IMG/VR virus record: IMGVR_UViG_3300035670_000139
Direction: 5' to 3' (one strand)
Length of the DNA stretch: 64,000 nt
Source: a virus
Lineage: Duplodnaviria; Heunggongvirae; Uroviricota; Caudoviricetes
The notes under the pieces were generated by a model. It did no database searches and was not told the origin of the DNA. It saw only the letters and a program-made list of their open reading frames with translations. A program made the translations under genes and the position numbers. Positions 7,588 through 64,000 of this stretch are shown here, piece after piece (the stretch's first letter is position 1; every line of letters begins with the position of its first letter).

Positions 7588-8202
7588 ATGGAAAACCAAA
7601 TTCTTGATATTACCAGCAATGGTAGATTTGTGCCTTATTTAATTGACCCAGCAGTTTTATTGTCAAATAAAGCTGTCACTAGTGCAACTAGTGTAAGAGT
7701 TGATAATGCACTTAAAATAGATATTAAAGCTATATTTCCTATAATTCAATTCCATGTAAGCGGTCTTACTGTTAATGATATTGTAGAAATAGATAAAATT
7801 GATTTTTATTACAATCCATCAGATGCTGGGGCTTTTACAAATAAACTTGCTGATTTAACAATATCTGCAACTTCTATATATAAAGAAAACTTGCAAGCAA
7901 GAAGTTTTACAAGTGGTTATTTAGATGCGTTTGATCAAGTAAAAATTAGTAATGTTAGTGGCTCAGTTATTAAAATTTTTGATTTTAAAGTCGCATATAA
8001 CGATTTAGGAGCAAAAGTGACTAACTATACCAAAGGACAAGCATTAAGTTTTTATGCAGTTCCTTATTTTAAGTTTAGTCGTGTTGCTGGTAGTAGCGGA
8101 ACAGCAAATATTACAATTAACTCGGTAAGTGGTATGTATCCTACTATTAACGGTGGTGTTGCAAAAAAAGCTTATTCTTTGCCGATTACATCTATTGCAT
8201 AA
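7588..8202 (+). CDS. Hypothetical virion protein (beta-rich; possibly head decoration)
   Basis: ORF located directly after the MCP candidate. Confidence 0.45.
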   Translation: MENQILDITSNGRFVPYLIDPAVLLSNKAVTSATSVRVDNALKIDIKAIFPIIQFHVSGLTVNDIVEIDKIDFYYNPSDAGAFTNKLADLTISATSIYKENLQARSFTSGYLDAFDQVKISNVSGSVIKIFDFKVAYNDLGAKVTNYTKGQALSFYAVPYFKFSRVAGSSGTANITINSVSGMYPTINGGVAKKAYSLPITSIA

Positions 8203-8216
8203 TTTATTTTATAAAA

Positions 8217-8804
8217 ATGACAAACATAATATATAAATCTCCAGTTGGTAGCAAAGGTAATATATCTGAAAGACTACCATCTGATATGCAACATTTACAA
8301 TCAGTTATAACACAATCTTATTTTAAAGAATTATCTGAAAAAATAGAAAAGGTTAATAACATTGAAGATGTAATATATTTTGTGACTAATACATTTTATA
8401 ATGAATATTTTGACTTAACAACTCAAGAGGTAAATTATCCTATTGTAGAAGATGCAGTAATTGGCTTAGTTGCTAACGAACCTCAAGTTGTTGCAGATGA
8501 ACCTCAAGTTGTTGCAGATGAACCTCAAGTTGTTGCAGATGAACCTCAAGTTCAAGATGAACCTCAAGTTCAAGATGAACCTCAAGTTCAAGATGAACCT
8601 CAAGTTGTTGCAGATGATACTCAGGTTAAAAGATATGTTATTATTGGTAAAATTAACAAAAATATGTTAGTAGAAAATGCTAATGTTGAAATCAATAATG
8701 AGTATGATGAAAATGAAATTAAATCAATTTTAAAAAACATTGCAAACTTACCAAGTTTGATTGAAAATAAAAAAATACAAGAAAAGATTTTAGAGGTAAA
8801 ATAA
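8217..8804 (+). CDS. Hypothetical protein with in-frame EPQVVAD / EPQVQD tandem repeats
   Basis: 195-aa ORF. The central section is 4x EPQVVAD plus 3x EPQVQD, encoded by 21- and 18-bp DNA tandem units. Confidence 0.5.
   Translation: MTNIIYKSPVGSKGNISERLPSDMQHLQSVITQSYFKELSEKIEKVNNIEDVIYFVTNTFYNEYFDLTTQEVNYPIVEDAVIGLVANEPQVVADEPQVVADEPQVVADEPQVQDEPQVQDEPQVQDEPQVVADDTQVKRYVIIGKINKNMLVENANVEINNEYDENEIKSILKNIANLPSLIENKKIQEKILEVK
8478..8615 (+). repeat. Tandem repeat array (21-bp units x4 interleaved with 18-bp units x3)
   Basis: gaacctcaagttgttgcagat x3, then gaacctcaagttcaagat x3, then gaacctcaagttgttgcagat. In-frame coding repeat. Confidence 0.9.
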
Positions 8805-9622
8805 TGGATAGTTGCAACAATCCTAATATTTTATATACATCATTTTCCAACGATGAACAAAGTATTATTGTTTCAAGAAATACTGTTTTAAGTGATGCTA
8901 CAAAAAATCTGTTTGTTACTTATATGCAGCAAACAGAACAGGAATTTACTTCAGATGGTTCTAGTGCTGAAATATCAAGATTTAAAGATAAAATTCTTGA
9001 AGCTATAGAAGACTTTACACTAGACACTAATTACATTATCCTTGATACATTATATAGGACTTCTGTTAAGTTTAATAAAAAAGCTGTTAGCCAATTTCCT
9101 TTTGGCGTTACAGACCCTTATAATTTTCAAATTACAATTAGTAGTAATTCATTATGTCAACCACAGGACATAATCACTATAAGTAAATTACAACCAGTGG
9201 TAATAGAACAATGGAATGTAAGAGATATTGCAAGCTTTACATATACCGATTATTCTACAAAAGAAAGTAAAACAATAGATGTTGCAACAAAGATTAATTT
9301 TGATGCAGGCATTACAAAAAGAACATTTCCACATCTTGCATTAAAAGATAGTAGTATTACAATTGCTAATTCTTACAATAATAAAGCTTTAGTTGACATC
9401 CAATATAATGCTGGTTATGTCAATAATATTTTAACAACATTACCAGAAGATATTTTAAGATGTATATCATTTTCTGCTTGGCAAAGGTATAGAATGCTTA
9501 TGAATGATTGTGCTGATAGATATAGCTTAGAAATCATTGACATTAAAAATAAATATATTACAACTTTACCTAAGAAGATTAGTAATAGTTTTGTTTATAT
9601 TACCAACAATGGGGCTTCCTAG
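8804..9622 (+). CDS. Hypothetical head/neck protein
   Basis: 272-aa ORF in the structural block; start coupled to the stop of the upstream gene. Confidence 0.5.
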   Translation: MDSCNNPNILYTSFSNDEQSIIVSRNTVLSDATKNLFVTYMQQTEQEFTSDGSSAEISRFKDKILEAIEDFTLDTNYIILDTLYRTSVKFNKKAVSQFPFGVTDPYNFQITISSNSLCQPQDIITISKLQPVVIEQWNVRDIASFTYTDYSTKESKTIDVATKINFDAGITKRTFPHLALKDSSITIANSYNNKALVDIQYNAGYVNNILTTLPEDILRCISFSAWQRYRMLMNDCADRYSLEIIDIKNKYITTLPKKISNSFVYITNNGAS

Positions 9623-10058
9623 AAAAATGCTGTGCGTCAAACCAGTTATACCAAGTAATAATTTTAAAAGTGTAAATTTTTATAAAGGCATAGCTCAAAT
9701 TGGAGATAATAAAAATTACACTAACAATAGCTACACATTATTAAAAAGCAATGTAAAGGTGATTGTTAAAGATAATATAAGCTTTACAACAAAAGCAACT
9801 ATGATAGATAGAAGTCAAAATACATCAGTAGTAGCTAAAGAAATTATTTTACAAAATTTTACAATTGATAACATATACCAGTTTTTAGCTAGCAATAAAA
9901 GATGTTTGTATGTTAAGCTTTATCAAGAGTTATACGAGGTTATAGAATTTACAACATTAACTAGCATTAAAATAAATGGTCAAACATATAACGCAGTTGG
10001 CGATAAGCCATTTTATCAATTATCATTAGCATTTAAACAATATGACTTTCAAGGTTAG
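9609..10058 (+). CDS. Hypothetical protein (start adjusted to an internal ATG to limit overlap)
   Basis: The ORF track starts at 9537, overlapping the upstream gene by 86 nt. ATG at 9609 (MGLPRKML...) gives only a 14-nt overlap. Confidence 0.4.
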   Translation: MGLPRKMLCVKPVIPSNNFKSVNFYKGIAQIGDNKNYTNNSYTLLKSNVKVIVKDNISFTTKATMIDRSQNTSVVAKEIILQNFTIDNIYQFLASNKRCLYVKLYQELYEVIEFTTLTSIKINGQTYNAVGDKPFYQLSLAFKQYDFQG

Positions 10059-34466: not shown

Positions 34467-35576
34467 TTAATTGCAAAATAGTTTAGATTTTAAAATATTA
34501 ACTAACCAATTGTCCCAATATTTAGTATCGCACTTTTCTGGAAATGTTGAATTTTTACTTAAATCTTGAACTTTTTCTATTAACTCTTCTAATTTTACAT
34601 TTATCTTATCATCAATATAATGAAATTCCCCTTGTTTAATTTTTAGTAAAAATTCTTTTTCTTGTAATGGATAAATAAGATTTTGTGTTTCATAAATCTC
34701 TTGTAATTGATAACCAGCCCTAAATGCATGATGGATTGCTTTCCAGTCTATATTTTGATTTTGTCTTGCTAATTCAGCTCTTTCTCCAAATTCCTTACAA
34801 AAATGCGACAATGATTTATAAATAGATTCAATATAATCACTTAAATAAAACTTTTTATCAAAAATTTCATAATAAGATTTTTGCAAATCTAATGAATTAT
34901 CTTCATTATAAAATAAATAAGTTTTAGTATATTCTAAATTCGGAATATTTTGTAAATGAAATATAATTTTTGTTCCTTTTACATTAGAATTACCATTAGC
35001 AATAGCTTCTTGATAAGATTTATAAATAGTTGGAACATTTTCTGGTATTGCATTTGTATTGTGAAAGTGAATATGTTTAAGGTATGCTTGAAAAGTCATA
35101 TCTGCTGGAATTTTTTTACTTTCTTCTATTGTTTTTTCACACCATTCAACTATCTTTTTTGCGGTATCTAATCTAGATCCTTTTATAGAGTATTTAGCTG
35201 CTTGCCCTTTGCAATATCCAATATAAGATTTTAAATTCTTAGAATAAAAAAGATGTCTTTTAGCTTTAAGGTCTTCCCAAACATCAGATGTAATTTCTTC
35301 CCATCCTTGTGGGGCATGTAATGTATCTATTGCATAAGTATCTCCATTAATACACAGTTGTATAAAATAATTTAAAGAAAATAATTGGTCATCAATGTCA
35401 GTGTTAGTATTTTTTGAGTGATGATTATTAGTATTATTAGTAATTGTTTTTTGTATTTTTTGCAATAAGTAGTCTTCAAGAGATGGAAGATATATTCCTT
35501 TATAATCTGTATCTGATTTTATTGTATTTGTGCCGTATAAATGAGAACCATGCTTCATTTTCATTAAAATTTTCAT
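34467..35576 (-). CDS. Predicted nucleotidyltransferase (Pol-beta superfamily)
   Basis: N-terminal MKHGSHLYGTNTIKSDTDYKGIY matches the NTase motif hG[SG]-x9-13-[DE]h[DE]h. 369 aa. Confidence 0.45.
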   Translation of the reverse strand: MKILMKMKHGSHLYGTNTIKSDTDYKGIYLPSLEDYLLQKIQKTITNNTNNHHSKNTNTDIDDQLFSLNYFIQLCINGDTYAIDTLHAPQGWEEITSDVWEDLKAKRHLFYSKNLKSYIGYCKGQAAKYSIKGSRLDTAKKIVEWCEKTIEESKKIPADMTFQAYLKHIHFHNTNAIPENVPTIYKSYQEAIANGNSNVKGTKIIFHLQNIPNLEYTKTYLFYNEDNSLDLQKSYYEIFDKKFYLSDYIESIYKSLSHFCKEFGERAELARQNQNIDWKAIHHAFRAGYQLQEIYETQNLIYPLQEKEFLLKIKQGEFHYIDDKINVKLEELIEKVQDLSKNSTFPEKCDTKYWDNWLVNILKSKLFCN

Positions 35577-35722: not shown

Positions 35723-35798
35723 TGGCTCCCTGAGTAGGACTCGAACCTACGACCAAGTGATTAACAGTCACTTGCTCTACCAACTGAGCTATCAGGGA
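35723..35798 (-). tRNA. tRNA-Asn (anticodon GTT)
   Basis: Minus-strand sequence TCCCTGATAGCTCAGTTGGTAGAGCAAGTGACTGTTAATCACTTGGTCGTAGGTTCGAGTCCTACTCAGGGAGCCA. Acceptor stem TCCCTGA/TCAGGGA, D-arm GCTC/GAGC, anticodon loop CTGTTAA, T-arm GTAGG-TTCGAGT-CCTAC, encoded CCA. Confidence 0.8.
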
Positions 35799-43289: not shown

Positions 43290-44450
43290 CTATTGACAAC
43301 AGCTCCCCTCGCTTTTAACGACCATTCCAGCCGCTATGTTTAGACCTTGTCGCAAAATATTTCTACTTGCAAGTAGGTCTCTGTTATGTGTTGTTTCACA
43401 ATTGTCACAAGTCCACTCTCTATCTTTTAAAGTTAGACTTTGATTAATTGTGCCACACACATCGCACATTCTACTTGATGGAAAAAATCTATCAATTATT
43501 ACTAATTGACGACCTTTCCATTTGCACTTATATTTAAGTTGTCGCTTAAATTCGTGCCAACTAACATCCGATATAGCTTGTGCCAATTTATGATTTTTAA
43601 TCATATTAGACACGGCTAAATCTTCCAAACAAATAATTTGGTTTTCATTACTTATTTGGTTTGTTATTTTGTGTAAATAATCTTTTCTGATATTAGAAAT
43701 TTTTAAATGGTATTTTGCAAGTTTTAATTGTCTTTTTTTTCTTATACCGCTACTTTTATTTGATTTACTTAATTGTCTTTGTAAATATTTAAGTTTTTTC
43801 ATTTTGCGTTTTAATGGTTTAATATTTTCATATACCACACCATTGGAGCAAGTTGCAAAATCTTTTATACCTAAATCAATACCTATTGCTTTTTGTAAGT
43901 TATCTAAAGTTTTAACTTCCTTTTCAACAATAATAGAAACATAATATTGATTATTACAATTTTTTGATATAGTAGCAACAACAAATTTGCCATCTAATTT
44001 TCTATGCTCTTTTACTTTTATGCCATTTTTAAACTTTGGAAAATATATTTTATTATTTTCTAGTTTAAAAAATTGCGGAATTGTAAAGCTCTGTTTGTTA
44101 TTTTTATTTTTAAATTTTGGAAATTGATGTGTTTTTCTAAAAAACATTTTGTAACTGCTATCAAGATGTTTTAAAGTTGCTTGTAAAGACTGTGCATTGC
44201 ATTCATTTAACCATTGAAATCCATCTTGTTTTTTTAGCTTGGTTAAATCTTTTGAGTTATCGTAGTAATTTAAACATCCTTTTATTCTTTTAGCTTCAAT
44301 GTTCTCTTTATTATTAATGTAATATTCTTTTCTTTGATTTAAAAAATAGTTCCAAACAAATCTACAACTGCCAAAGTGTTTTGCAAGTAATATTTTTTGC
44401 TCTGCGTTTGGATATATCCTAAACTTATAAGCCATATTTATTACTTGCAT
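43290..44450 (-). CDS. tnpB: TnpB (OMEGA RNA-guided nuclease, RuvC-like plus zinc finger)
   Basis: RuvC-I GIDLGIKDFATCSNG, zinc finger CDVCGTINQ...CDNCETT, and RuvC-III HNRDLLASRNI (D.NAA.NI-like). The catalytic residues appear intact. Confidence 0.85.
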   Translation of the reverse strand: MQVINMAYKFRIYPNAEQKILLAKHFGSCRFVWNYFLNQRKEYYINNKENIEAKRIKGCLNYYDNSKDLTKLKKQDGFQWLNECNAQSLQATLKHLDSSYKMFFRKTHQFPKFKNKNNKQSFTIPQFFKLENNKIYFPKFKNGIKVKEHRKLDGKFVVATISKNCNNQYYVSIIVEKEVKTLDNLQKAIGIDLGIKDFATCSNGVVYENIKPLKRKMKKLKYLQRQLSKSNKSSGIRKKRQLKLAKYHLKISNIRKDYLHKITNQISNENQIICLEDLAVSNMIKNHKLAQAISDVSWHEFKRQLKYKCKWKGRQLVIIDRFFPSSRMCDVCGTINQSLTLKDREWTCDNCETTHNRDLLASRNILRQGLNIAAGMVVKSEGSCCQ

Positions 44451-47636: not shown

Positions 47637-47897
47637 ATGGACACCAAGACGATAAACAATCGATGGAGATATCGTAGACGGATAGCAATCACATCCGCTA
47701 TCTTTTTGTTTTTACTTGAGATTGTTGCTATTGCTAAATTAATATCTTTGCCTTTTGACAAACTTACAATGGAGCATGTGATTTTCTTTGTTATAGCAAC
47801 AATACCACTTCTTGCTATTGTATTAGTTTATTTCATTGCATCAACTTTTGATGATGTTAAGGTGTTTTTGATTGATAGATTAAAACACAAAGATTAA
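47637..47897 (+). CDS. Small membrane protein
   Basis: 86 aa with two TM helices. Confidence 0.4.
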   Translation: MDTKTINNRWRYRRRIAITSAIFLFLLEIVAIAKLISLPFDKLTMEHVIFFVIATIPLLAIVLVYFIASTFDDVKVFLIDRLKHKD

Positions 47898-49000
47898 CTA
47901 TGGGCAGCTTTGTATAACATATCGTAGTGGTCTTCAAAAAAAGCATCCTTACCCATTTTTAAAGCATCCCAAGCTTCAATCCACTCAACACTACTTGCAT
48001 CATCTCCAGCTTTTACTGCATTAATATCATAGTCTTTTGGTAATAATGTAGTATAGAGTGTTGTAATTACTCTACCACGACGACTACGATTTGGGTTGTC
48101 AAAATTGCAGAATAACCGCACATGTAGACGATCAGCTATAACTAACCCAGTCTCTTCTTTTAACTCACGCAAAGCACATTCTTTTAATGTTTCATTTTGA
48201 TTAACAAACCCACCTGGTAAAGCATAAAGTCCTTTGCCAGGTGTTTTACCCCTTTTAATTAATAATACTTTACATTCGTAATTATGGTATTGAAATACTG
48301 CAATATCAGCAGTGTGCTCTATGCGAGGATATTGCTTAACTTCTTCTTGATAGTTTGCATAATAGACATCGTCCTCAGTAATTAAACCTGCCTCAATGTA
48401 TTTTTTTTGCATTTCAAGATAGTCATTCATAGAAAGCCAAAAACAAATGTATTTTTTTTGCATTTCAAGGTAATCATCCATAGAAAACCAAAACCACGAG
48501 TATTGTTTAAAAACTGGCGTATTTGTAAAAAATTCTTTTCTTTTATCTTTTGCACTTATCACTTTACCATTTTCTAAATACGGCTCAACTTCAATCACAT
48601 TATCAAAGATTTTAGCATCTTTAATTAAGTCAATATAATTTGCTGTTTTATCATCTTTTTTGCAAGTAATTAAGTTAATTTGACTATCTTTATTGTTGTT
48701 TTTTATATCTTGTATTGTGTTTTTAATGCAATTTATCCATTCTGCGTCAGTGTCGCAATCTTGAACTGGTAATATTTCTTTTACCTTATTTGTTGGCCAT
48801 AAGCATTTACACAAAATTTTAATGTCTAACTCGTGTTTTCGCTCTTCAAAAGTAAATGGATTGCAAACATCTCTTGATTTATCAGCCGAACCAACTAAGA
48901 TATAAACTTCACTATAATTTTCACAAGCTTTTGCTATTAAAGCTAAATGCCCCTCGTGAACTAATTGAAATCTACCTAAAACGACATTAATAATTTTCAT
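47894..49000 (-). CDS. natV: Bifunctional NMN adenylyltransferase / Nudix hydrolase (NatV-like)
   Basis: N-terminal H-x-G-H nucleotidyltransferase motif (GRFQLVHEGHLAL). C-terminal Nudix box GKGLYALPGGFVNQNETLKECALRELKEETGL. A 17-aa in-frame tandem duplication lies in the linker (48397-48498). Confidence 0.8.
   Translation of the reverse strand: MKIINVVLGRFQLVHEGHLALIAKACENYSEVYILVGSADKSRDVCNPFTFEERKHELDIKILCKCLWPTNKVKEILPVQDCDTDAEWINCIKNTIQDIKNNNKDSQINLITCKKDDKTANYIDLIKDAKIFDNVIEVEPYLENGKVISAKDKRKEFFTNTPVFKQYSWFWFSMDDYLEMQKKYICFWLSMNDYLEMQKKYIEAGLITEDDVYYANYQEEVKQYPRIEHTADIAVFQYHNYECKVLLIKRGKTPGKGLYALPGGFVNQNETLKECALRELKEETGLVIADRLHVRLFCNFDNPNRSRRGRVITTLYTTLLPKDYDINAVKAGDDASSVEWIEAWDALKMGKDAFFEDHYDMLYKAAHS
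48397..48498 (-). repeat. 51-bp x2 in-frame tandem duplication inside natV
   Basis: atgtattttttttgcatttcaag[a/g]ta[g/a]tcat[t/c]catagaaa[g/a]ccaaaa.. repeated, encoding FSMDDYLEMQKKYICFW / LSMNDYLEMQKKYIEAG. Confidence 0.85.
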
Positions 49001-50043: not shown

Positions 50044-51309
50044 TTAAATCAATATTCCGTCTTTTGCAGAGTAGACTAAATCCATTTTAGAAGTGTCAAT
50101 CCTTCCTTTAATAGATTTTTTACCGCTATCGGTAATCGGGTCTTTGTAGACATCTTGCCAAACTTCTTTTCCGTCTATATTCAGACAAATTGCAGATGTT
50201 TTATAAGCAAATTTTAAAGTATCCCTACTGCAATTTTGCATTAAATCACCACCAGAGCCAAAGACAAAATTAGCAGGTGAAAACATTTTATCAGTAAAGT
50301 GTTGTAAAATATTTTCTATTTGCTTTGCGGTAATACCATCTCCCCAAAGAATACGATATTTTTTAAATAATTTGTAACCTTTGTCATTTGTAGTAAATTG
50401 CACTTTATTTTTATCAAAAATTTCTAACATTTTTGTAATAACTTCAATAGGGTTGCCACTGTCAGGTCTAATAACCCAAATCGGATAAGAATTACTTTCA
50501 ATTCTATCTTTCATGGAACCTGATGTTTGAAAATCTGTTGCTTTGTAAATATCATAGCTATCAGATACACAAGCGACAATAGAATAACTTTTAAATGTTT
50601 CTAATAAATTTTCCATTGCTTTAAATTCATTTTCCCTGCCCCAGCTCGTAATAGTTGAATGCTCCGATGCAGGAACGGAAAAGCCAGTTTTTGCATGTAA
50701 GACTGCATTAAAGTTATCAGTCCCTTTAAATTGAGTTAAATGAGCCATGCCACCTATTTTAGCACTTTCAACACTACTTGAACCTCTATCTCCAAAGTTG
50801 TGATAAGCAAAATCAACCCCAGCCACATCCTCGCCAGCTTTTTGATAAAAAGATGTTATCATTTGTTTAATGTAATAACATCTTGTTGCTATTGTAGTCG
50901 GATACCAAAGTTTCAACAAGTAAGTTTCTAAAAAAGAAGGCAACCAAAAATAGTTGTTATCGGTATTTTCTACAACAAGCAAAGGTTGTGAAATGTCGTG
51001 TAATTCATTTTCTTTTACCGCATATATATTGATAGGTAAATGTATATGTCCTTTTTTATTTTGTAAATTCAAACCATCAAAACCTTCTTTGTTATATGGT
51101 AAGCCATGTTGCTCTACAAGTTTTTGCCAATCTATTAGTCCATTTTGATATGTATTTAAACCATATAAATGTTCTTTTAAACCAGTAAAAAACACTTTTT
51201 TGAAGCCTTCGTCTGAGCCTCTGGCGGAAAGATAACAATGTATTTTTTTTGTGTTTTTAGGGTATTGTAAATAATGTGAAAATTTGTAAGAGTCCGTTAA
51301 GTGTAGCAT
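50044..51309 (-). CDS. nadV: Nicotinamide phosphoribosyltransferase (NAMPT/NadV)
   Basis: N-terminal LHLTDSYKFSHYLQYPKNTKKIHCYLSARGS matches NAMPT (NTDSYK.tHy.QYP). 421 aa. Confidence 0.8.
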   Translation of the reverse strand: MLHLTDSYKFSHYLQYPKNTKKIHCYLSARGSDEGFKKVFFTGLKEHLYGLNTYQNGLIDWQKLVEQHGLPYNKEGFDGLNLQNKKGHIHLPINIYAVKENELHDISQPLLVVENTDNNYFWLPSFLETYLLKLWYPTTIATRCYYIKQMITSFYQKAGEDVAGVDFAYHNFGDRGSSSVESAKIGGMAHLTQFKGTDNFNAVLHAKTGFSVPASEHSTITSWGRENEFKAMENLLETFKSYSIVACVSDSYDIYKATDFQTSGSMKDRIESNSYPIWVIRPDSGNPIEVITKMLEIFDKNKVQFTTNDKGYKLFKKYRILWGDGITAKQIENILQHFTDKMFSPANFVFGSGGDLMQNCSRDTLKFAYKTSAICLNIDGKEVWQDVYKDPITDSGKKSIKGRIDTSKMDLVYSAKDGILI

Positions 51310-59175: not shown

Positions 59176-60048
59176 TTAAAAATCCCAACGAGGATCTACC
59201 TCTGTATCATTTTGACGAAGCTCTTGTATCCGTTTTTCACGCAAAGCATCTTGTCGCTTATCTTCCATTGCTTTATACTTAGGTTTTTGCATTTCTTGTG
59301 TTTTTAATCCATTCCAGCTATCAAATGATTGAAAGTTATTTAACCAAGTTGTGAAATCTCCACGAACATGTCTTCCTTCACCATCCCAAGTGAGTTTAGT
59401 AATTTCAATATATTCAAAATAAACTTTACAAGATTGTTGTATCTGCTCTGCATCATAGTCTTTTAGAACTTTGTTCCAAGACTGATATGCTTTTGTCATT
59501 TCTTGAGTTTCTTTATGCTCTGTTGGGAATTGCTTCAAAGCTCCGATTTGCATTTTATAAAAATAAAAGGTATCAAGAAACTCTTTGTCGGCAAGAGGAC
59601 TTTTTTTGTTTATTTTTTTAATAATCTCAGTATTGTTATTCTTAATATTATTATTATCAGTATTACTTATATATAGACTGCTATTTTCCATATATGGATT
59701 TTCCCTATGTGGTTTTTCATCGTGTGGTTTTTCCGTAGCAGGATATTCTATTTGCGGTTCATCGTATATTATGTATTCCGTTCCAATAAATTTACCATCT
59801 TCTCCCCTGATTTTTACCTTTGTTAAAAATCCACTTTCTAATAACTCTTTAATTGCACTATCAAAAGCATCTATACCTTCTTTTAACTCGTTTAAAATGA
59901 CTGCTTTTTTAAAAATCCAATTGTCTGGCTTAGATAGTAAATAAGTGCATAAACCTTTAGCTTTTAAAGATAAGTCTTTACATTCTAAAATTGCATTTGG
60001 AATTTGAGTAAAACAATTTTTAAACCTTCTTTTAATTGTTTGTTGCAT
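59176..60048 (-). CDS. Replication initiator / replisome-organiser-like protein (N-terminal winged-helix)
   Basis: N-terminal FTQIPNAILECKDLSLKAKGLCTYLLSKPDNWIF resembles phage replication-initiator N-terminal HTH domains. The central region has short direct repeats (PHDEKPHRENP; DNA TGTGGTTTTTC x2). Confidence 0.35.
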   Translation of the reverse strand: MQQTIKRRFKNCFTQIPNAILECKDLSLKAKGLCTYLLSKPDNWIFKKAVILNELKEGIDAFDSAIKELLESGFLTKVKIRGEDGKFIGTEYIIYDEPQIEYPATEKPHDEKPHRENPYMENSSLYISNTDNNNIKNNNTEIIKKINKKSPLADKEFLDTFYFYKMQIGALKQFPTEHKETQEMTKAYQSWNKVLKDYDAEQIQQSCKVYFEYIEITKLTWDGEGRHVRGDFTTWLNNFQSFDSWNGLKTQEMQKPKYKAMEDKRQDALREKRIQELRQNDTEVDPRWDF

Positions 60049-60517
60049 AGATTTTGTGATTAATCTCGGATAATTGGTGCCCCCTCTTTTTTAGGTAATA
60101 TTACGCCAATAATTTTACTATGTTGCAAGTTTGAATTGCAAGAAAAAAGAGAGGACATAAAAACATAAGCAAATTTATTGGCAATTAAAGTTTGCTAACT
60201 TCTTTTACAGATGTCAAGAGTTTTTTAAACTAAAAAATACTTCACAACCATTTTGTTGACATGCCCAAAATGGTCTAACTTACAATTTTGCCCGCATGGG
60301 AAAAATAGCGACCAGCATTCAATTTGAGTCCGTGACATTTTGTCACGACCTGATTTTAAGTATTGTAGTTTGTCTAATTTACCATTTTACTGATGTCGGT
60401 AAAATGGTCGGAAGCCCTAGTTCACTAAGCTTGAGTTGTTTCCAAAATGGAAATAACTGAAATTCACCAAAAGGGAGGTGACAATTTGTCCCCATCCTTC
60501 TGCAAAATTTAAAATTT

Positions 60518-60547
60518 TTTAAAGGTAGCGAATTCGCTACCTTTAAA
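60518..60547. repeat. 30-bp perfect palindrome TTTAAAGGTAGCGAATTCGCTACCTTTAAA
   Basis: Exact reverse-complement symmetry centred on GAATTC. It lies in the GC-enriched noncoding tract 60050-60600. Confidence 0.9.
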
Positions 60548-60594
60548 CATTTAGTAATTACAAATTTAAACAAAGATATTGTTATTATTAAAAC

Positions 60595-61155
60595 TTACTT
60601 CGCAAATATAAGATATATTTTTGAATAATAATTTTTAATGCTTTTTTTAATTTTTAATAATTTCTTAGATAACGGTTCTTTGTAATAATTTTTAACAAAA
60701 TGCCAAATCAACGGATATGTTTCTTTTACAAATTTACCACAAATTTTAATATCAATATCTTCTAAGGTTTTAATGTTATCAGTATTTGAAATTTTTAAGT
60801 GTTCTTTTGCAAAAGTTGTGATACATCCATCATATATCTTTTTTACAAACAGAGATTCTATTGTCTTTAATCTTGTATCTTGTAATGTTTTAAATAAATA
60901 TACCATAACAGTTTTGTCAATTAAATTTGCTTTTGATAAAAAGCCTATTTCGTCAATTCTTTGCCAAAATTTATATATTTCTTTGTTTAATTCATAAAGA
61001 TTATCGGCTTTAGTTTTTTCATCCAGTTCTTTAAGTTCACTAATTTTACAAAGAGGTATAATATTAGCTAAAATGTTCTCAATATCGTGTTTAATTTTAA
61101 TGGACTCCTTTACAATCAAGTCTTTTCTTGAAAATGGTGTAGATGTTTGATACAT
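60595..61155 (-). CDS. Hypothetical protein downstream of the Panacea-domain gene (candidate toxin partner)
   Basis: 186-aa ORF, 35 nt downstream of the DUF4065 gene on the same strand. Confidence 0.4.
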   Translation of the reverse strand: MYQTSTPFSRKDLIVKESIKIKHDIENILANIIPLCKISELKELDEKTKADNLYELNKEIYKFWQRIDEIGFLSKANLIDKTVMVYLFKTLQDTRLKTIESLFVKKIYDGCITTFAKEHLKISNTDNIKTLEDIDIKICGKFVKETYPLIWHFVKNYYKEPLSKKLLKIKKSIKNYYSKIYLIFAK

Positions 61156-61190
61156 ATTTAGATTGATTAATTTTGAAATTAATTAAAATC

Positions 61191-61862
61191 TTACAAATGA
61201 TTTGTTGTTTTGTCAAGATTTAATTGCAACTCAAGATATTTAGTAATGTATTTTTTACGGATTTCTTCTGCTTTTGCGTAAATCTTGTCTATATCAAGAC
61301 CAAACAAATCTTCTTTTTTCAACTTATCAAAATAGCCTTTTATTAAAAAACTTTCAATTTTACATCCAAAAGTATTGTATTTATCGCAGACAAATTTCCA
61401 AGGTGAGCCATCTTGATGCGACCAATTACTTAATTCTAAAGCTTTTTTCTTTGGAATGTTGCTGGCAATAAACTCTTGCAAGATGTACTTCATTATCTCC
61501 TCATCTCTTTGCCTGGATATACTCTTGCCTTCTTTTACTTCGTAAAATGGTTTGTAGTTCACGCTAAAAGCTTCGGTAGTTAATTGAGAATAGTTTTGGT
61601 AAATATTTTTAAAAACAGGTCCATATGGCCAAGCTTCAGGTAGTTCGTCAAACAGAGATAGAACAACTTTTCCTTCATTGTTTAACACCGATGTTTTTGG
61701 TATCATGTCAACCTTTAAAGCAACTCCCATTACTATATACATTATTTTTTGCAATTTTGTGTTGCTAAGCTCAACATTTTTACCTTTTGGTGTATTTTCA
61801 TTACCAATATTGTATATATCCATCAAAAAAATTAGGTCTTTTGCTACATCTACGGCTTTCAT
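61191..61862 (-). CDS. Panacea-domain (DUF4065, SocA/PanA-like) antitoxin-type protein
   Basis: TKLQKIMYIVMGVALK...LFDELPEAWPYGPVFKNIYQNY matches the DUF4065 signature (KLQKLLYy..g.....lf.e.feAW.yGPVvp.vY). Confidence 0.55.
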   Translation of the reverse strand: MKAVDVAKDLIFLMDIYNIGNENTPKGKNVELSNTKLQKIMYIVMGVALKVDMIPKTSVLNNEGKVVLSLFDELPEAWPYGPVFKNIYQNYSQLTTEAFSVNYKPFYEVKEGKSISRQRDEEIMKYILQEFIASNIPKKKALELSNWSHQDGSPWKFVCDKYNTFGCKIESFLIKGYFDKLKKEDLFGLDIDKIYAKAEEIRKKYITKYLELQLNLDKTTNHL

Positions 61863-61991
61863 AGTATTTTACTAAGATTTACTTGTATTTTTCTCCGTTA
61901 CATTCCCAGTCCTAAACCCAAACGGCGGATGTGCCTGACCTGCAAAGGTAAAAAACTGTCTATAAATAACCATAAAAAACTATAAAAAAAC

Positions 61992-62020
61992 TTGACATTT
62001 ATAATTTTTCCATATACAAT
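61992..62020 (+). promoter_or_regulatory. Sigma70-like promoter: TTGACA, 17-nt spacer, TACAAT
   Basis: aaacTTGACAtttataatttttccataTACAAT, 30 nt upstream of the IS607-type tnpA. Confidence 0.5.
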
Positions 62021-62050
62021 TTATTTATTAAGATTTGATTATTTAAAAAT

Positions 62051-62644
62051 ATGGAATTAGTAACAATATCAAAAGCAAAAAAACTACTTGGAGTAACACC
62101 TCAAACAATGCGTAATTGGGATAAAAATGGCAAGATAAAGCCAGTTAAAAGAGCTAAAAATGGTTTTCGCTATTATAATCTATTAGATATACAAAATTTA
62201 GTAAAGCCAAAAAATAAAATGATTATAGGCTATTGTCGTGTATCTTCTAAAAAACAAGAAGATGATTTATGCAGACAAATTGAAAATGTAAAAACATTTA
62301 TGATAGCTAAAGGATATAGTTTTGAAATAATACAGGATATAGGCTCTGGAATTAACTATACTAAAAATGGCTTAAATGAATTAATCACTAAAGTTATTAA
62401 TGGTAATGTTGAGAAAGTTGTTATATTATATAAAGACAGATTGCTGCGTTTTGGATTTGAATTATTAGAAAGCATATTTCAAAAATATAATTGTAAAATT
62501 GAAATTATTGATAATACAGAAAAAACAGAGGAACAAGAATTAGTTGAGGATTTAATACAAATTGTGACAGTTTTTTCTTGTAAATTACAAGGCAAAAGAA
62601 GCAAAAAAACAAAAGCATTAATTAACGAGTTAAAAAATGATTAA
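62051..62644 (+). CDS. tnpA: IS607-type serine recombinase transposase (MerR-like HTH plus resolvase catalytic domain)
   Basis: N-terminal MerR-type HTH (AKKLLGVTPQTMRNWDKNGKIKP..NGFRYY), then catalytic IIGYCRVSSKKQEDDL (Y-x-R-V-S-x-x-x-Q). 197 aa. Confidence 0.8.
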   Translation: MELVTISKAKKLLGVTPQTMRNWDKNGKIKPVKRAKNGFRYYNLLDIQNLVKPKNKMIIGYCRVSSKKQEDDLCRQIENVKTFMIAKGYSFEIIQDIGSGINYTKNGLNELITKVINGNVEKVVILYKDRLLRFGFELLESIFQKYNCKIEIIDNTEKTEEQELVEDLIQIVTVFSCKLQGKRSKKTKALINELKND

Positions 62645-63869
62645 ATCCTTCAAAGTTCGTCTTGAACCAAACAATAAACAAAAATCTTTGTTGTTTGCAA
62701 ATGCAAGTGTTGCAAGATTTGCATACAATTGGACTTTAGAACAACAGCAACTCAATTACAAGAATGGTGGTAAGTTTATTAGTCATTTTGATTTACGCAA
62801 AAAATTAACCCAATTAAAACAAAAAGAACTAAGCTGGCTATACAACTATGATGTTGATATTGTAAAACAAGCAGTAAAAGATGCTTGCGATAGTTATATT
62901 AAATTCTTTAATAAAGGCTTTGGATTTCCAAGATTTAAAAGTAAAAGATTTTCAAAACCTAGTTTTTTTGTTGATAATTATAAAATCAAAATCTTTGAAA
63001 ATAGCATTAAAATTCCAAAACTTAAGTCAAACATAAAATTAAGTGAAAATGGATATATCCCATTGAATGTAAAATATTCTAACCCAAGAATTACTTTTGA
63101 TGGAGTAAATTGGTTTTTATCTGTTGGAGTTGATATTGAAAATGAAATACAAGAACTCACAAATGAAACACTTGGAATTGATGTAGGTTTAAAAGATGCT
63201 TTAATTAGAAGTGATGGAATTATACATAAAAATATCAATAAAACTAAAAAAATTAAAACATTAAGAAAAAAACATAATAAACTTAAAAAATCAATTAGTA
63301 GAAAATATGAAAGAAACAAAATTGGTAAAAAATTTATCAAAACTCAAAATATTAAAAAAGCTGAGTTAAAATCAAATAAACTTTACAAAAAGTTAAACGA
63401 TATACAAACTGACTATTTCAACAAAGTAGCCATTTCAATTGCGAGAACCAAGCCAAAAAAGATTGTTATGGAAAAGTTGAATATTGATGGGATGCGAAAG
63501 AATAAATGTCTTTCAAAAGCCTTTCAAGAAGCTAGTTTGCATAAATTCAAAACTAAAATTCAAAATAAATGTTTGGAGTTTGGGATTGAATTTATTGAGG
63601 CTGGAACATTTTTTCCATCCTCAAAAAGATGTAGTCATTGTGGAGCAATTAAAAAAGACTTGAAATTAAAAGATAGAGTTTTTAAATGCGATACATGCGA
63701 CTTTCAAATAGACAGGGACGAAAACGCAAGTCAAAATCTCAAACAATACCCTGAGTTACAGGGGAATTTAAGCCTTTGGAGTGCTAAATCAAAAGAAAGT
63801 AGTCGCAAGACAAAATCTGGCACCGAGAAGAAGGAAAAAAGCAAAAAACTTAATAGAGTAGCAATATGA
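62637..63869 (+). CDS. tnpB: TnpB (OMEGA RNA-guided nuclease)
   Basis: RuvC-I GIDVGLKDALIRSDG, zinc finger CSHCGAIKK...CDTCDFQ, and RuvC-III DRDENASQNL. 410 aa. Start overlaps tnpA by 8 nt. Confidence 0.85.
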   Translation: MIKSFKVRLEPNNKQKSLLFANASVARFAYNWTLEQQQLNYKNGGKFISHFDLRKKLTQLKQKELSWLYNYDVDIVKQAVKDACDSYIKFFNKGFGFPRFKSKRFSKPSFFVDNYKIKIFENSIKIPKLKSNIKLSENGYIPLNVKYSNPRITFDGVNWFLSVGVDIENEIQELTNETLGIDVGLKDALIRSDGIIHKNINKTKKIKTLRKKHNKLKKSISRKYERNKIGKKFIKTQNIKKAELKSNKLYKKLNDIQTDYFNKVAISIARTKPKKIVMEKLNIDGMRKNKCLSKAFQEASLHKFKTKIQNKCLEFGIEFIEAGTFFPSSKRCSHCGAIKKDLKLKDRVFKCDTCDFQIDRDENASQNLKQYPELQGNLSLWSAKSKESSRKTKSGTEKKEKSKKLNRVAI

Positions 63870-64000
63870 TGTTAGGTTTTTGTAAGTCTTTTATAACGGT
63901 ATACGGATTGCTTGATGTGTAAATCACCTCATGGTTTGTAACGCTTGGCTTTGGCAATATGTATGAATCTATTGAATGTTTTTTCTCTTGTGTTGCAATT

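Follow-up and report, generated by a model that had tools for sequence, protein, structure and literature searches.

A phage-borne Panacea gene of evidently chimeric structure and its rare 186-residue partner: a possible PanAT-like module

We analysed a 64,000-nucleotide (nt) stretch of viral DNA (IMG/VR record IMGVR_UViG_3300035670_000139, Caudoviricetes; hereafter the window), concentrating on pan, which encodes a Panacea (DUF4065) protein, and on the gene that follows it. The window is a myovirus-like phage genome (28.5% G+C) encoding a terminase large subunit, tail sheath, baseplate hub and tail fibres, as well as a phage lysozyme and a ribonucleotide reductase, and the two genes are located in its early or replication region. 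The original prediction had placed both open reading frames (ORFs) on the same strand at given positions, and they are indeed there, on the minus strand: pan at 61191-61862 (223 amino acids) and its partner at 60595-61155 (186 amino acids). Their arrangement also matches the sequence, with pan first and a spacer of 35 nt from its stop to the next ATG (61156-61190, minus strand). The flanks had been described correctly too, an IS607-type element lying on one side and a DnaD-like or replication-initiator-like gene on the other (59176-60048; phrog_186, 6e-17; phrog_270, 4e-16).

Pan is a genuine Panacea-domain protein. The domain had been proposed from the motifs KLQKIMY and AWPYGPVFKNIY, both of which are present in the translation. 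In Pfam, PF13274 (SocA_Panacea) gives a borderline pass (residues 70-156, 26.0 bits for a gathering cut-off of 25.7, E-value 1.8e-5), and the assignment is backed by phrog_1281 in PHROGs (residues 25-203, E-value 3.4e-16), by the NCBIfam SocA_antitoxin model (residues 28-182, E-value 2e-13, 50.4 bits for an equivalog cut-off of 190) and by the presence of PF13274 in 10 of the 13 members of the Pan clade (best E-value 5.6e-15). The core covers approximately residues 25-185 and is followed by a C-terminal helical extension. The GPV motif, which lies in strand beta2 and matters for neutralisation (Kurata et al. 2022, PMC8832971), is found at residues 81-83 within WPYGPV (W78-P-Y-G81-P82-V83); the clade alignment shows no variation at W78 and G81 and almost none at P82. 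Seventeen relatives were found in a database of 5.8 billion proteins; an IMG/VR scan with Pan found no relatives and a profile search of the Protein Data Bank (PDB) sequences with the Pan alignment returned nothing significant. The gene is under purifying selection (dN/dS ~0.3).

The 186-residue partner is basic (pI 9.4), predicted to be all-helical, and belongs to a very rare family of about 20 sequences: 8 relatives, then 13 by a second profile search, were found in the database of 5.8 billion proteins, and 10 by a profile search among 1.8 billion cluster representatives. The original prediction had seen no recognisable motif in it, and Pfam, PHROGs, PADLOC and NCBIfam were likewise all blank, with no family above noise; a MazF-like PHROG match (E-value 0.018 over 50 residues) was put down to chance. 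Phage and plasmid collections contained no tblastn match to the partner, blastn of the region against phages was blank as well, an IMG/VR scan with the partner profile gave no relatives, and a profile search of the PDB sequences with the partner alignment nothing significant. A structure model built from an 8-sequence alignment reached a predicted local distance difference test (pLDDT) of 61, and an AlphaFold2 (AF2) model built from 12 sequences a pLDDT of 73 and a predicted template-modelling score of 0.58, with seven to eight helices. The partner too is under purifying selection (dN/dS ~0.32), with dS between lineages of up to 0.66-0.8 for the two genes, and intact ORFs occur in every lineage seen.

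Upstream of pan lies a conserved gene, here called up (79-125 amino acids in relatives), which is in two pieces in the window. The 3' remnant (61872-61946, minus strand), delimited by tblastn with the L004 up94 protein, by blastn and by the junction sequences, has its stop 9 nt before the pan ATG; the 5' part (63898-64000, minus strand) runs past the window end and corresponds to positions 8141-8246 of the related locus L004 (window 64000-63895, 99% identity). Between the two sits an IS607-family insertion sequence (61947-63897, plus strand; Pfam, Rfam and junctions), made up of a TnpA combining a MerR-type helix-turn-helix (HTH) with a serine recombinase (62051-62644), a TnpB (62637-63869) and a RAGATH-18 RNA (63773-63836), with GTATACC immediately before the element and TTTGCAGG immediately after it. 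Because the L004 sequence runs uninterrupted across the insertion point, leaving off at window 63895 and resuming at 61950, the element must have split the window's up gene, and as up is continuous in L004 the native unit is evidently up, pan, partner and terminator. Three further assemblies of this phage end at the IS607 insertion point, as a multi-copy element would lead one to expect.

An intrinsic-terminator-like hairpin (60510-60547, minus strand), with a 13-bp stem and an A/T run, lies 48 nt past the partner stop and, as judged from the inverted repeat and from minimum free energy and centroid folds, closes the operon. A search of 59900-62100 against Rfam with a relaxed cut-off yielded one sub-threshold chance match only. 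The spacer is likewise 35 nt long in L072 and L009. A consensus scan further located a promoter-like site, TTGACA-17-TAAGAT (61188-61216, minus strand), inside the 3' end of pan and upstream of the partner; such matches are not enriched over shuffles, the DNA being AT-rich. The site belongs to the 45 nt over which conservation of the cassette is highest (peak 61251-61207), and over 15 codons of the pan tail 0-1 synonymous changes were observed against 2.5-3.8 expected (P ~0.02-0.08 per pair), a weak depletion that suggests constraint at the DNA level. An internal promoter for the partner within the pan tail is, on this evidence, a hypothesis.

The pan gene of the window is evidently a chimera, its core coming from a chromosomal panA/membrane-protein locus and its last ~19 codons from the partner side. 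By blastn, window positions 61863-61249 align with positions 6000-6614 of L011, a Rickettsiales metagenome-assembled genome (MAG), at 95.9% identity over 615 nt from the ATG to codon ~205, where the similarity ends; the recombinant core thus comprises codons 1 to ~204 (61250-61862, minus strand). The remaining tail, ...KYITKYLELQLNLDKTTNHL (61191-61249, minus strand), is specific to the 186-residue partner and inherited with it in the alignments, and the tail, spacer, partner and downstream region together are 90% identical to L004. In the comparison with L072, identities of 51-89% give way to 93-100% from ~61300 onward. A neighbour-joining tree of the core places the window with L011 (100% bootstrap) and the other pan genes that have this partner type in a separate clade (100% bootstrap). 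The phage-borne Pan is thus, by both DNA identity and tree, closely related to a chromosomal antitoxin-type gene.

The chromosomal locus from which the core appears to derive carries a different partner. In L005, L006, L007 and L011, the place of the window partner after Pan homologues of 66-94% identity is taken by an unrelated protein of 145-187 amino acids with a charged N-terminal half and two C-terminal transmembrane (TM) helices. Hydropathy gives two TM-type segments in each of the L005, L007 and L011 partners, and one or two terminal ones in distant homologues of the window partner; the possibility that the two partner types are remote homologues was rejected (hhalign probability 0.2%). 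The chromosomal pairs (L011 6001-7123, L005 10001-11250 and L007 2719-3816) keep their synteny in three Rickettsiales-like genomes, each preceding a gene for a UbiH-like monooxygenase, and have a G+C content of 30-34% against 40-45% for the neighbouring housekeeping genes. They have the look of a PanAT-like module of long residence whose toxin is a membrane protein. In L012 and L013, which have more distant Rickettsiales pan genes, small TM peptides come next. These comparisons show that unrelated proteins have replaced one another as the partner downstream of pan in this clade; such swapping is the hallmark of PanAT, and it strongly suggests that the gene after pan is functionally coupled to Pan.

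The pair of the window evidently recurs in at least four other lineages. It is found in L001-3, three further assemblies whose sequence is identical to the window, in L008, in L072, in the P0006/P0017 contig and, with an insertion, in L004; all of these sequences are metagenomic, partner identity ranges from 73 to 100% (73% for L008, 94% for L004) and dS reaches 0.66. The nearest genomic match, labelled 'Rickettsia typhi' in error, is a MAG of the Rickettsiales from fresh water. Separation of the pair in related genomes, which the original prediction had named as an outcome that would count against it, was encountered in part: the pair is kept in these lineages, but it is disturbed in others. 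In L009 and L010, from two samples, Pan codons 9-195 have been lost in frame between GCAAAAG microhomologies while the partner is intact. What is left in L009 is a mini-ORF of 34 amino acids, MKATDIAK plus AQEIRTKYITKYLELQLNLDKSINYL, that is, the first 8 and the last 26 residues of Pan, 35 nt upstream of an intact partner of 196 amino acids; TnpB genes also flank the cassette there. In L004, a gene for 296 amino acids with no detectable family (9092-9982) sits exactly in the 35-nt spacer. This insert, downstream of the promoter-like site, has the character of a cassette that was added to the operon; its reading as a degenerate Panacea protein (BLAST E-value 2e-4 in a tiny database) was rejected (hhalign probability 0.7%).

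Each gene also occurs unpaired. In a phage-like context, two Xre-type HTH genes precede a Pan of 54% identity that no partner gene follows, and the distant partner homologues of L067, L069 and L070 are without any Panacea neighbour. The full-length distant homologues of the partner (30-55% identity) occupy varied, patchy and island-like chromosomal positions, with small hydrophilic ORFs directly before them. They have a C-terminal hydrophobic helix and several also have an N-terminal one, so that the older members of the family are, as far as these helices indicate, membrane-anchored through their termini; the partners of the window clade lack both helices, and their C-termini are variable and frameshift-like. 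In L070 (3122-6834) a homologue of 277 amino acids with terminal TM helices lies between thiC and thiS, after a gene of the AIPR abortive-infection type and three small ORFs. The ORF directly before it encodes 60 amino acids, ...EILTKIEEMKRNKREE..., and a fragment 69-70% identical to it occurs in L009 (2977-3180). Such small upstream ORFs, this one included, could be alternative antitoxins. Also in the relatives, a second, different Panacea gene (182-184 amino acids, PF13274 E-value 1.9e-10) is present in L009 (68-932) and L008 (534-1385), a few kb from the cassette, paired with an oppositely oriented Cys-rich ORF of 91-97 amino acids (CxxC...CxxC), apparently as a PanAT-like pair in its own right.

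As far as gene content and order go, the core of the cassette has the architecture of PanAT systems, in which a Panacea antitoxin is encoded beside a variable toxin. The operational definition of these systems is a gap of at most 100 nt, conservation across lineages and at most three genes (Kurata et al. 2022, PMC8832971). Here the gap is 35 nt on the same strand, the pair is conserved across lineages, and up, pan and partner make three genes before the terminator (four in L004). The locus shares with the published systems (PMC8832971) the GPV Panacea domain, the antitoxin-first bicistron with a gap of less than 100 nt, the phage location and partner swapping within one Pan clade, and the sister loci have membrane PanT-like partners with a charged N-terminus and C-terminal TM helices, as validated membrane PanTs do. 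It differs from them in that the window partner, a putative toxin, is a new family without TM helix, enzymatic motif or toxin fold, in that the Panacea core is naturally deleted or replaced with the partner intact, and in its conserved third, upstream gene and possible internal promoter. Membrane-disrupting PanTs (T3/T12-like) differ from the window partner in the same way, as it has no predicted TM helices. As for SocAB, the Caulobacter type VI toxin-antitoxin (TA) system with the toxin SocB and its ClpXP adaptor SocA, the Panacea domain is homologous, but Pan scores far below the SocA equivalog cut-off, the partner is unrelated to SocB, and nothing points to a proteolytic-adaptor mechanism.

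We tentatively favour, at somewhat less than an even chance, a PanAT-like module in which the 186-residue effector is restrained by the C-terminal tail of Pan and one Panacea core can stand in for another. The partner would inhibit growth unless bound directly by Pan; it would be neutralised, in a partner-specific way, by the short C-terminal extension, and the globular core would be a replaceable sensor or scaffold. Carried by the phage, such a module would serve for addiction, exclusion or abortive infection. The purifying selection on both genes and the patchy chromosomal distribution of the partner family, with one copy beside an AIPR-type gene, also speak for this reading. The emphasis on the tail stems from the variants: Panacea cores were cognate-specific in the cases studied (Kurata et al. 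2022, PMC8832971), and for this reason the chimeric core and the L009/L010 deletion are hard to reconcile with neutralisation by the core. A TA function is plausible, and would require the tail, and not the Panacea domain, as neutralising element. Linear neutralisation of this kind, in which a terminal add-on neutralises and can work without Panacea, has been described by Ernits et al. 2023 (PMC10440598), who propose that the Panacea domain is a sensor; core replacement and Panacea deletion would fit it. In their example, the PanA of Corynebacterium doosanense, a C-terminal Phd-C element neutralises Doc (PMC10440598). In both cases the partner type goes together with a C-terminal extension outside the core, the core seems dispensable or exchangeable, and the natural 34-residue mini-ORF of L009 parallels the engineered Panacea-less Phd-C construct. 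Unlike the C. doosanense protein, the window tail has no Phd-C similarity, its partner is not Doc, the binding of tail to partner is presumed, and the partner-specific part of the tail amounts to ~12-14 residues only.

Several observations weigh against this reading. The toxin fold that had been sought by structure prediction was not found, the partner model matching no known fold; family searches revealed no catalytic or toxin motif, and there is no TM segment in the partner (maximal 19-residue hydropathy 1.06, none above 1.6). For a classical TA pair, loss of the Panacea domain or a swap to a non-cognate core would be lethal unless the tail suffices, and the brevity of its partner-specific part, just given, is a difficulty in itself. 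Conservation of the tail may moreover be at the DNA level, as a promoter of the partner, rather than at the protein level. A toxin gene should not be kept without its antitoxin, yet the partner is kept without a Panacea gene in L009/L010 and in L067, L069 and L070, though the tail mini-ORF persists in L009; conversely, the 54%-identical Pan stands without a partner. The L004 insert separates the two genes, and in the window itself IS607 severs the first gene of the cassette and the native upstream region from pan. At least a third of predicted PanTs were, furthermore, non-toxic in E. coli in published screens (PMC8832971). The original prediction is correct as regards domain, gene order and mobile context; its toxin-antitoxin interpretation gains from the recurrence of the pair and from partner swapping, and is weakened by the separated pairs and the missing toxin fold, and the anti-defence role that it offered as an alternative may still apply.

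Part of the same evidence lends itself to a different account, in which Pan alone is a counter-defence protein: a captured host panA core would neutralise the host membrane PanT, an abortive-infection trigger, and the 186-residue gene would be a mere neighbour or moron. Phage antitoxin mimics do disarm host TA or abortive-infection systems, as T4 Dmd does with RnlA and LsoA. The window resembles them in that a phage, recognisable as such from its terminase, sheath, baseplate, tail fibre and lysozyme genes, carries an antitoxin-type gene with a core nearly identical to a host chromosomal antitoxin gene, one whose neighbour is a 2-TM protein and whose locus is shared by three Rickettsiales genomes; it differs in that its pan keeps its own linked partner, and both an abortive-infection role of the host membrane protein and its neutralisation by the phage Pan are suppositions. 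The core homology spans the ATG to codon ~205, the partner has its own promoter-like site and can persist without a Panacea domain, a phage-context Pan without partner exists, and the same phage carries a likely counter-defence pair, NAMPT plus NMNAT/Nudix. Set against this, the adjacency of pan and partner with the same 35-nt spacing has been held across lineages with dS ~0.5; the remaining pan genes that accompany this partner make up a separate clade that is not host-like, so that capture explains the window copy only; the core swap could be neutral gene conversion; and the host of the phage is itself inferred. We regard this account as unlikely, with an appreciable chance all the same of being right. 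One might also speculate that both functions are combined, the host-captured core disarming the host membrane PanT while the tail of ~20-40 residues is a sufficient micro-antitoxin for the phage's helical effector, for which the retention of only the 34-residue tail ORF in L009 would be evidence; such a dual-purpose chimera seems to us quite improbable.

Adjacency could, on the other hand, reflect co-function of another sort, the partner being for example a regulator or host-interaction factor and Pan its chaperone or sensor, in a module that is not toxic at all. A basic, all-helical protein without toxin features, which tolerates Panacea loss and an inserted gene, would suit such a role, as would the purifying selection on both genes, and a sensory rather than neutralising function of Panacea has been proposed (Ernits et al. 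2023, PMC10440598). We nevertheless consider it improbable, since searches of Pfam and NCBIfam and the profile searches detected no DNA-binding or other functional motif in the partner, all characterised Panacea pairs are toxin-antitoxin systems, and the sister loci have PanT-like membrane proteins at the same position. Finally, the cassette might be a decaying remnant, the partner a truncated membrane protein minus both anchors in an operon beheaded by IS607. The absence from the window clade of the N- and C-terminal hydrophobic helices of the distant homologues, the frameshift-like C-termini, the splitting of the upstream gene and the existence of the deletion variant all point that way, but dN/dS values of ~0.3 for both genes at dS of up to 0.66-0.8, and ORFs intact in all lineages seen, including the identical copies in the three further assemblies, make decay very improbable.

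Other features of the phage deserve mention. Between the partner terminator and the replication-initiator-like gene, a non-coding stretch of 545 nt (60049-60594) is unusually structured (RNA fold z = -4.9), ~90% conserved in L004, and contains palindromic units ACCATTTT-N12-AAAATGGT at 60247-60275 and 60381-60409. Possible readings of this stretch are an origin, a regulatory region or an unknown RNA. A second TnpB, of the IS605 OrfB type (43290-44450), adjoins the ribonucleotide reductase gene. The NAMPT gene (50044-51309) and the bifunctional NMNAT/Nudix gene (47894-49000), with a prephenate-dehydrogenase-like gene between them, form an NAD+ salvage pair resembling the NAD-reconstitution pathways that phages use in counter-defence. 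An RlaP-family gene (34467-35576), for an RNA-repair-pathway nucleotidyltransferase of the polymerase-beta type, adjoins the only tRNA gene of the phage, tRNA-Asn (35723-35798).

In PanAT systems a single antitoxin domain is known to be combined with dozens of unrelated toxins; a Panacea protein with an unrecognisable partner is the expected state of the family, and one more such partner is unsurprising. What the locus adds is four natural variants within one narrow clade: a partner swap, a breakpoint that leaves ~19 codons with the partner, replacement of the core by that of a host, and an in-frame Panacea deletion. Should the partner prove to be a toxin, the variants would speak for linear neutralisation with Panacea as a sensor, a model so far based on engineered constructs, and the peptide of ~26-34 residues to which they point makes the modular tail and core directly testable. 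If it is not, the locus is a caution against calling a TA pair from Panacea adjacency alone. The locus is also a rare phage-host link, by an inferred host, for an uncultured freshwater Rickettsiales lineage. Were the dual-purpose chimera true, core and neutralising element would be shown to be separable, with phages shuffling both with their hosts.

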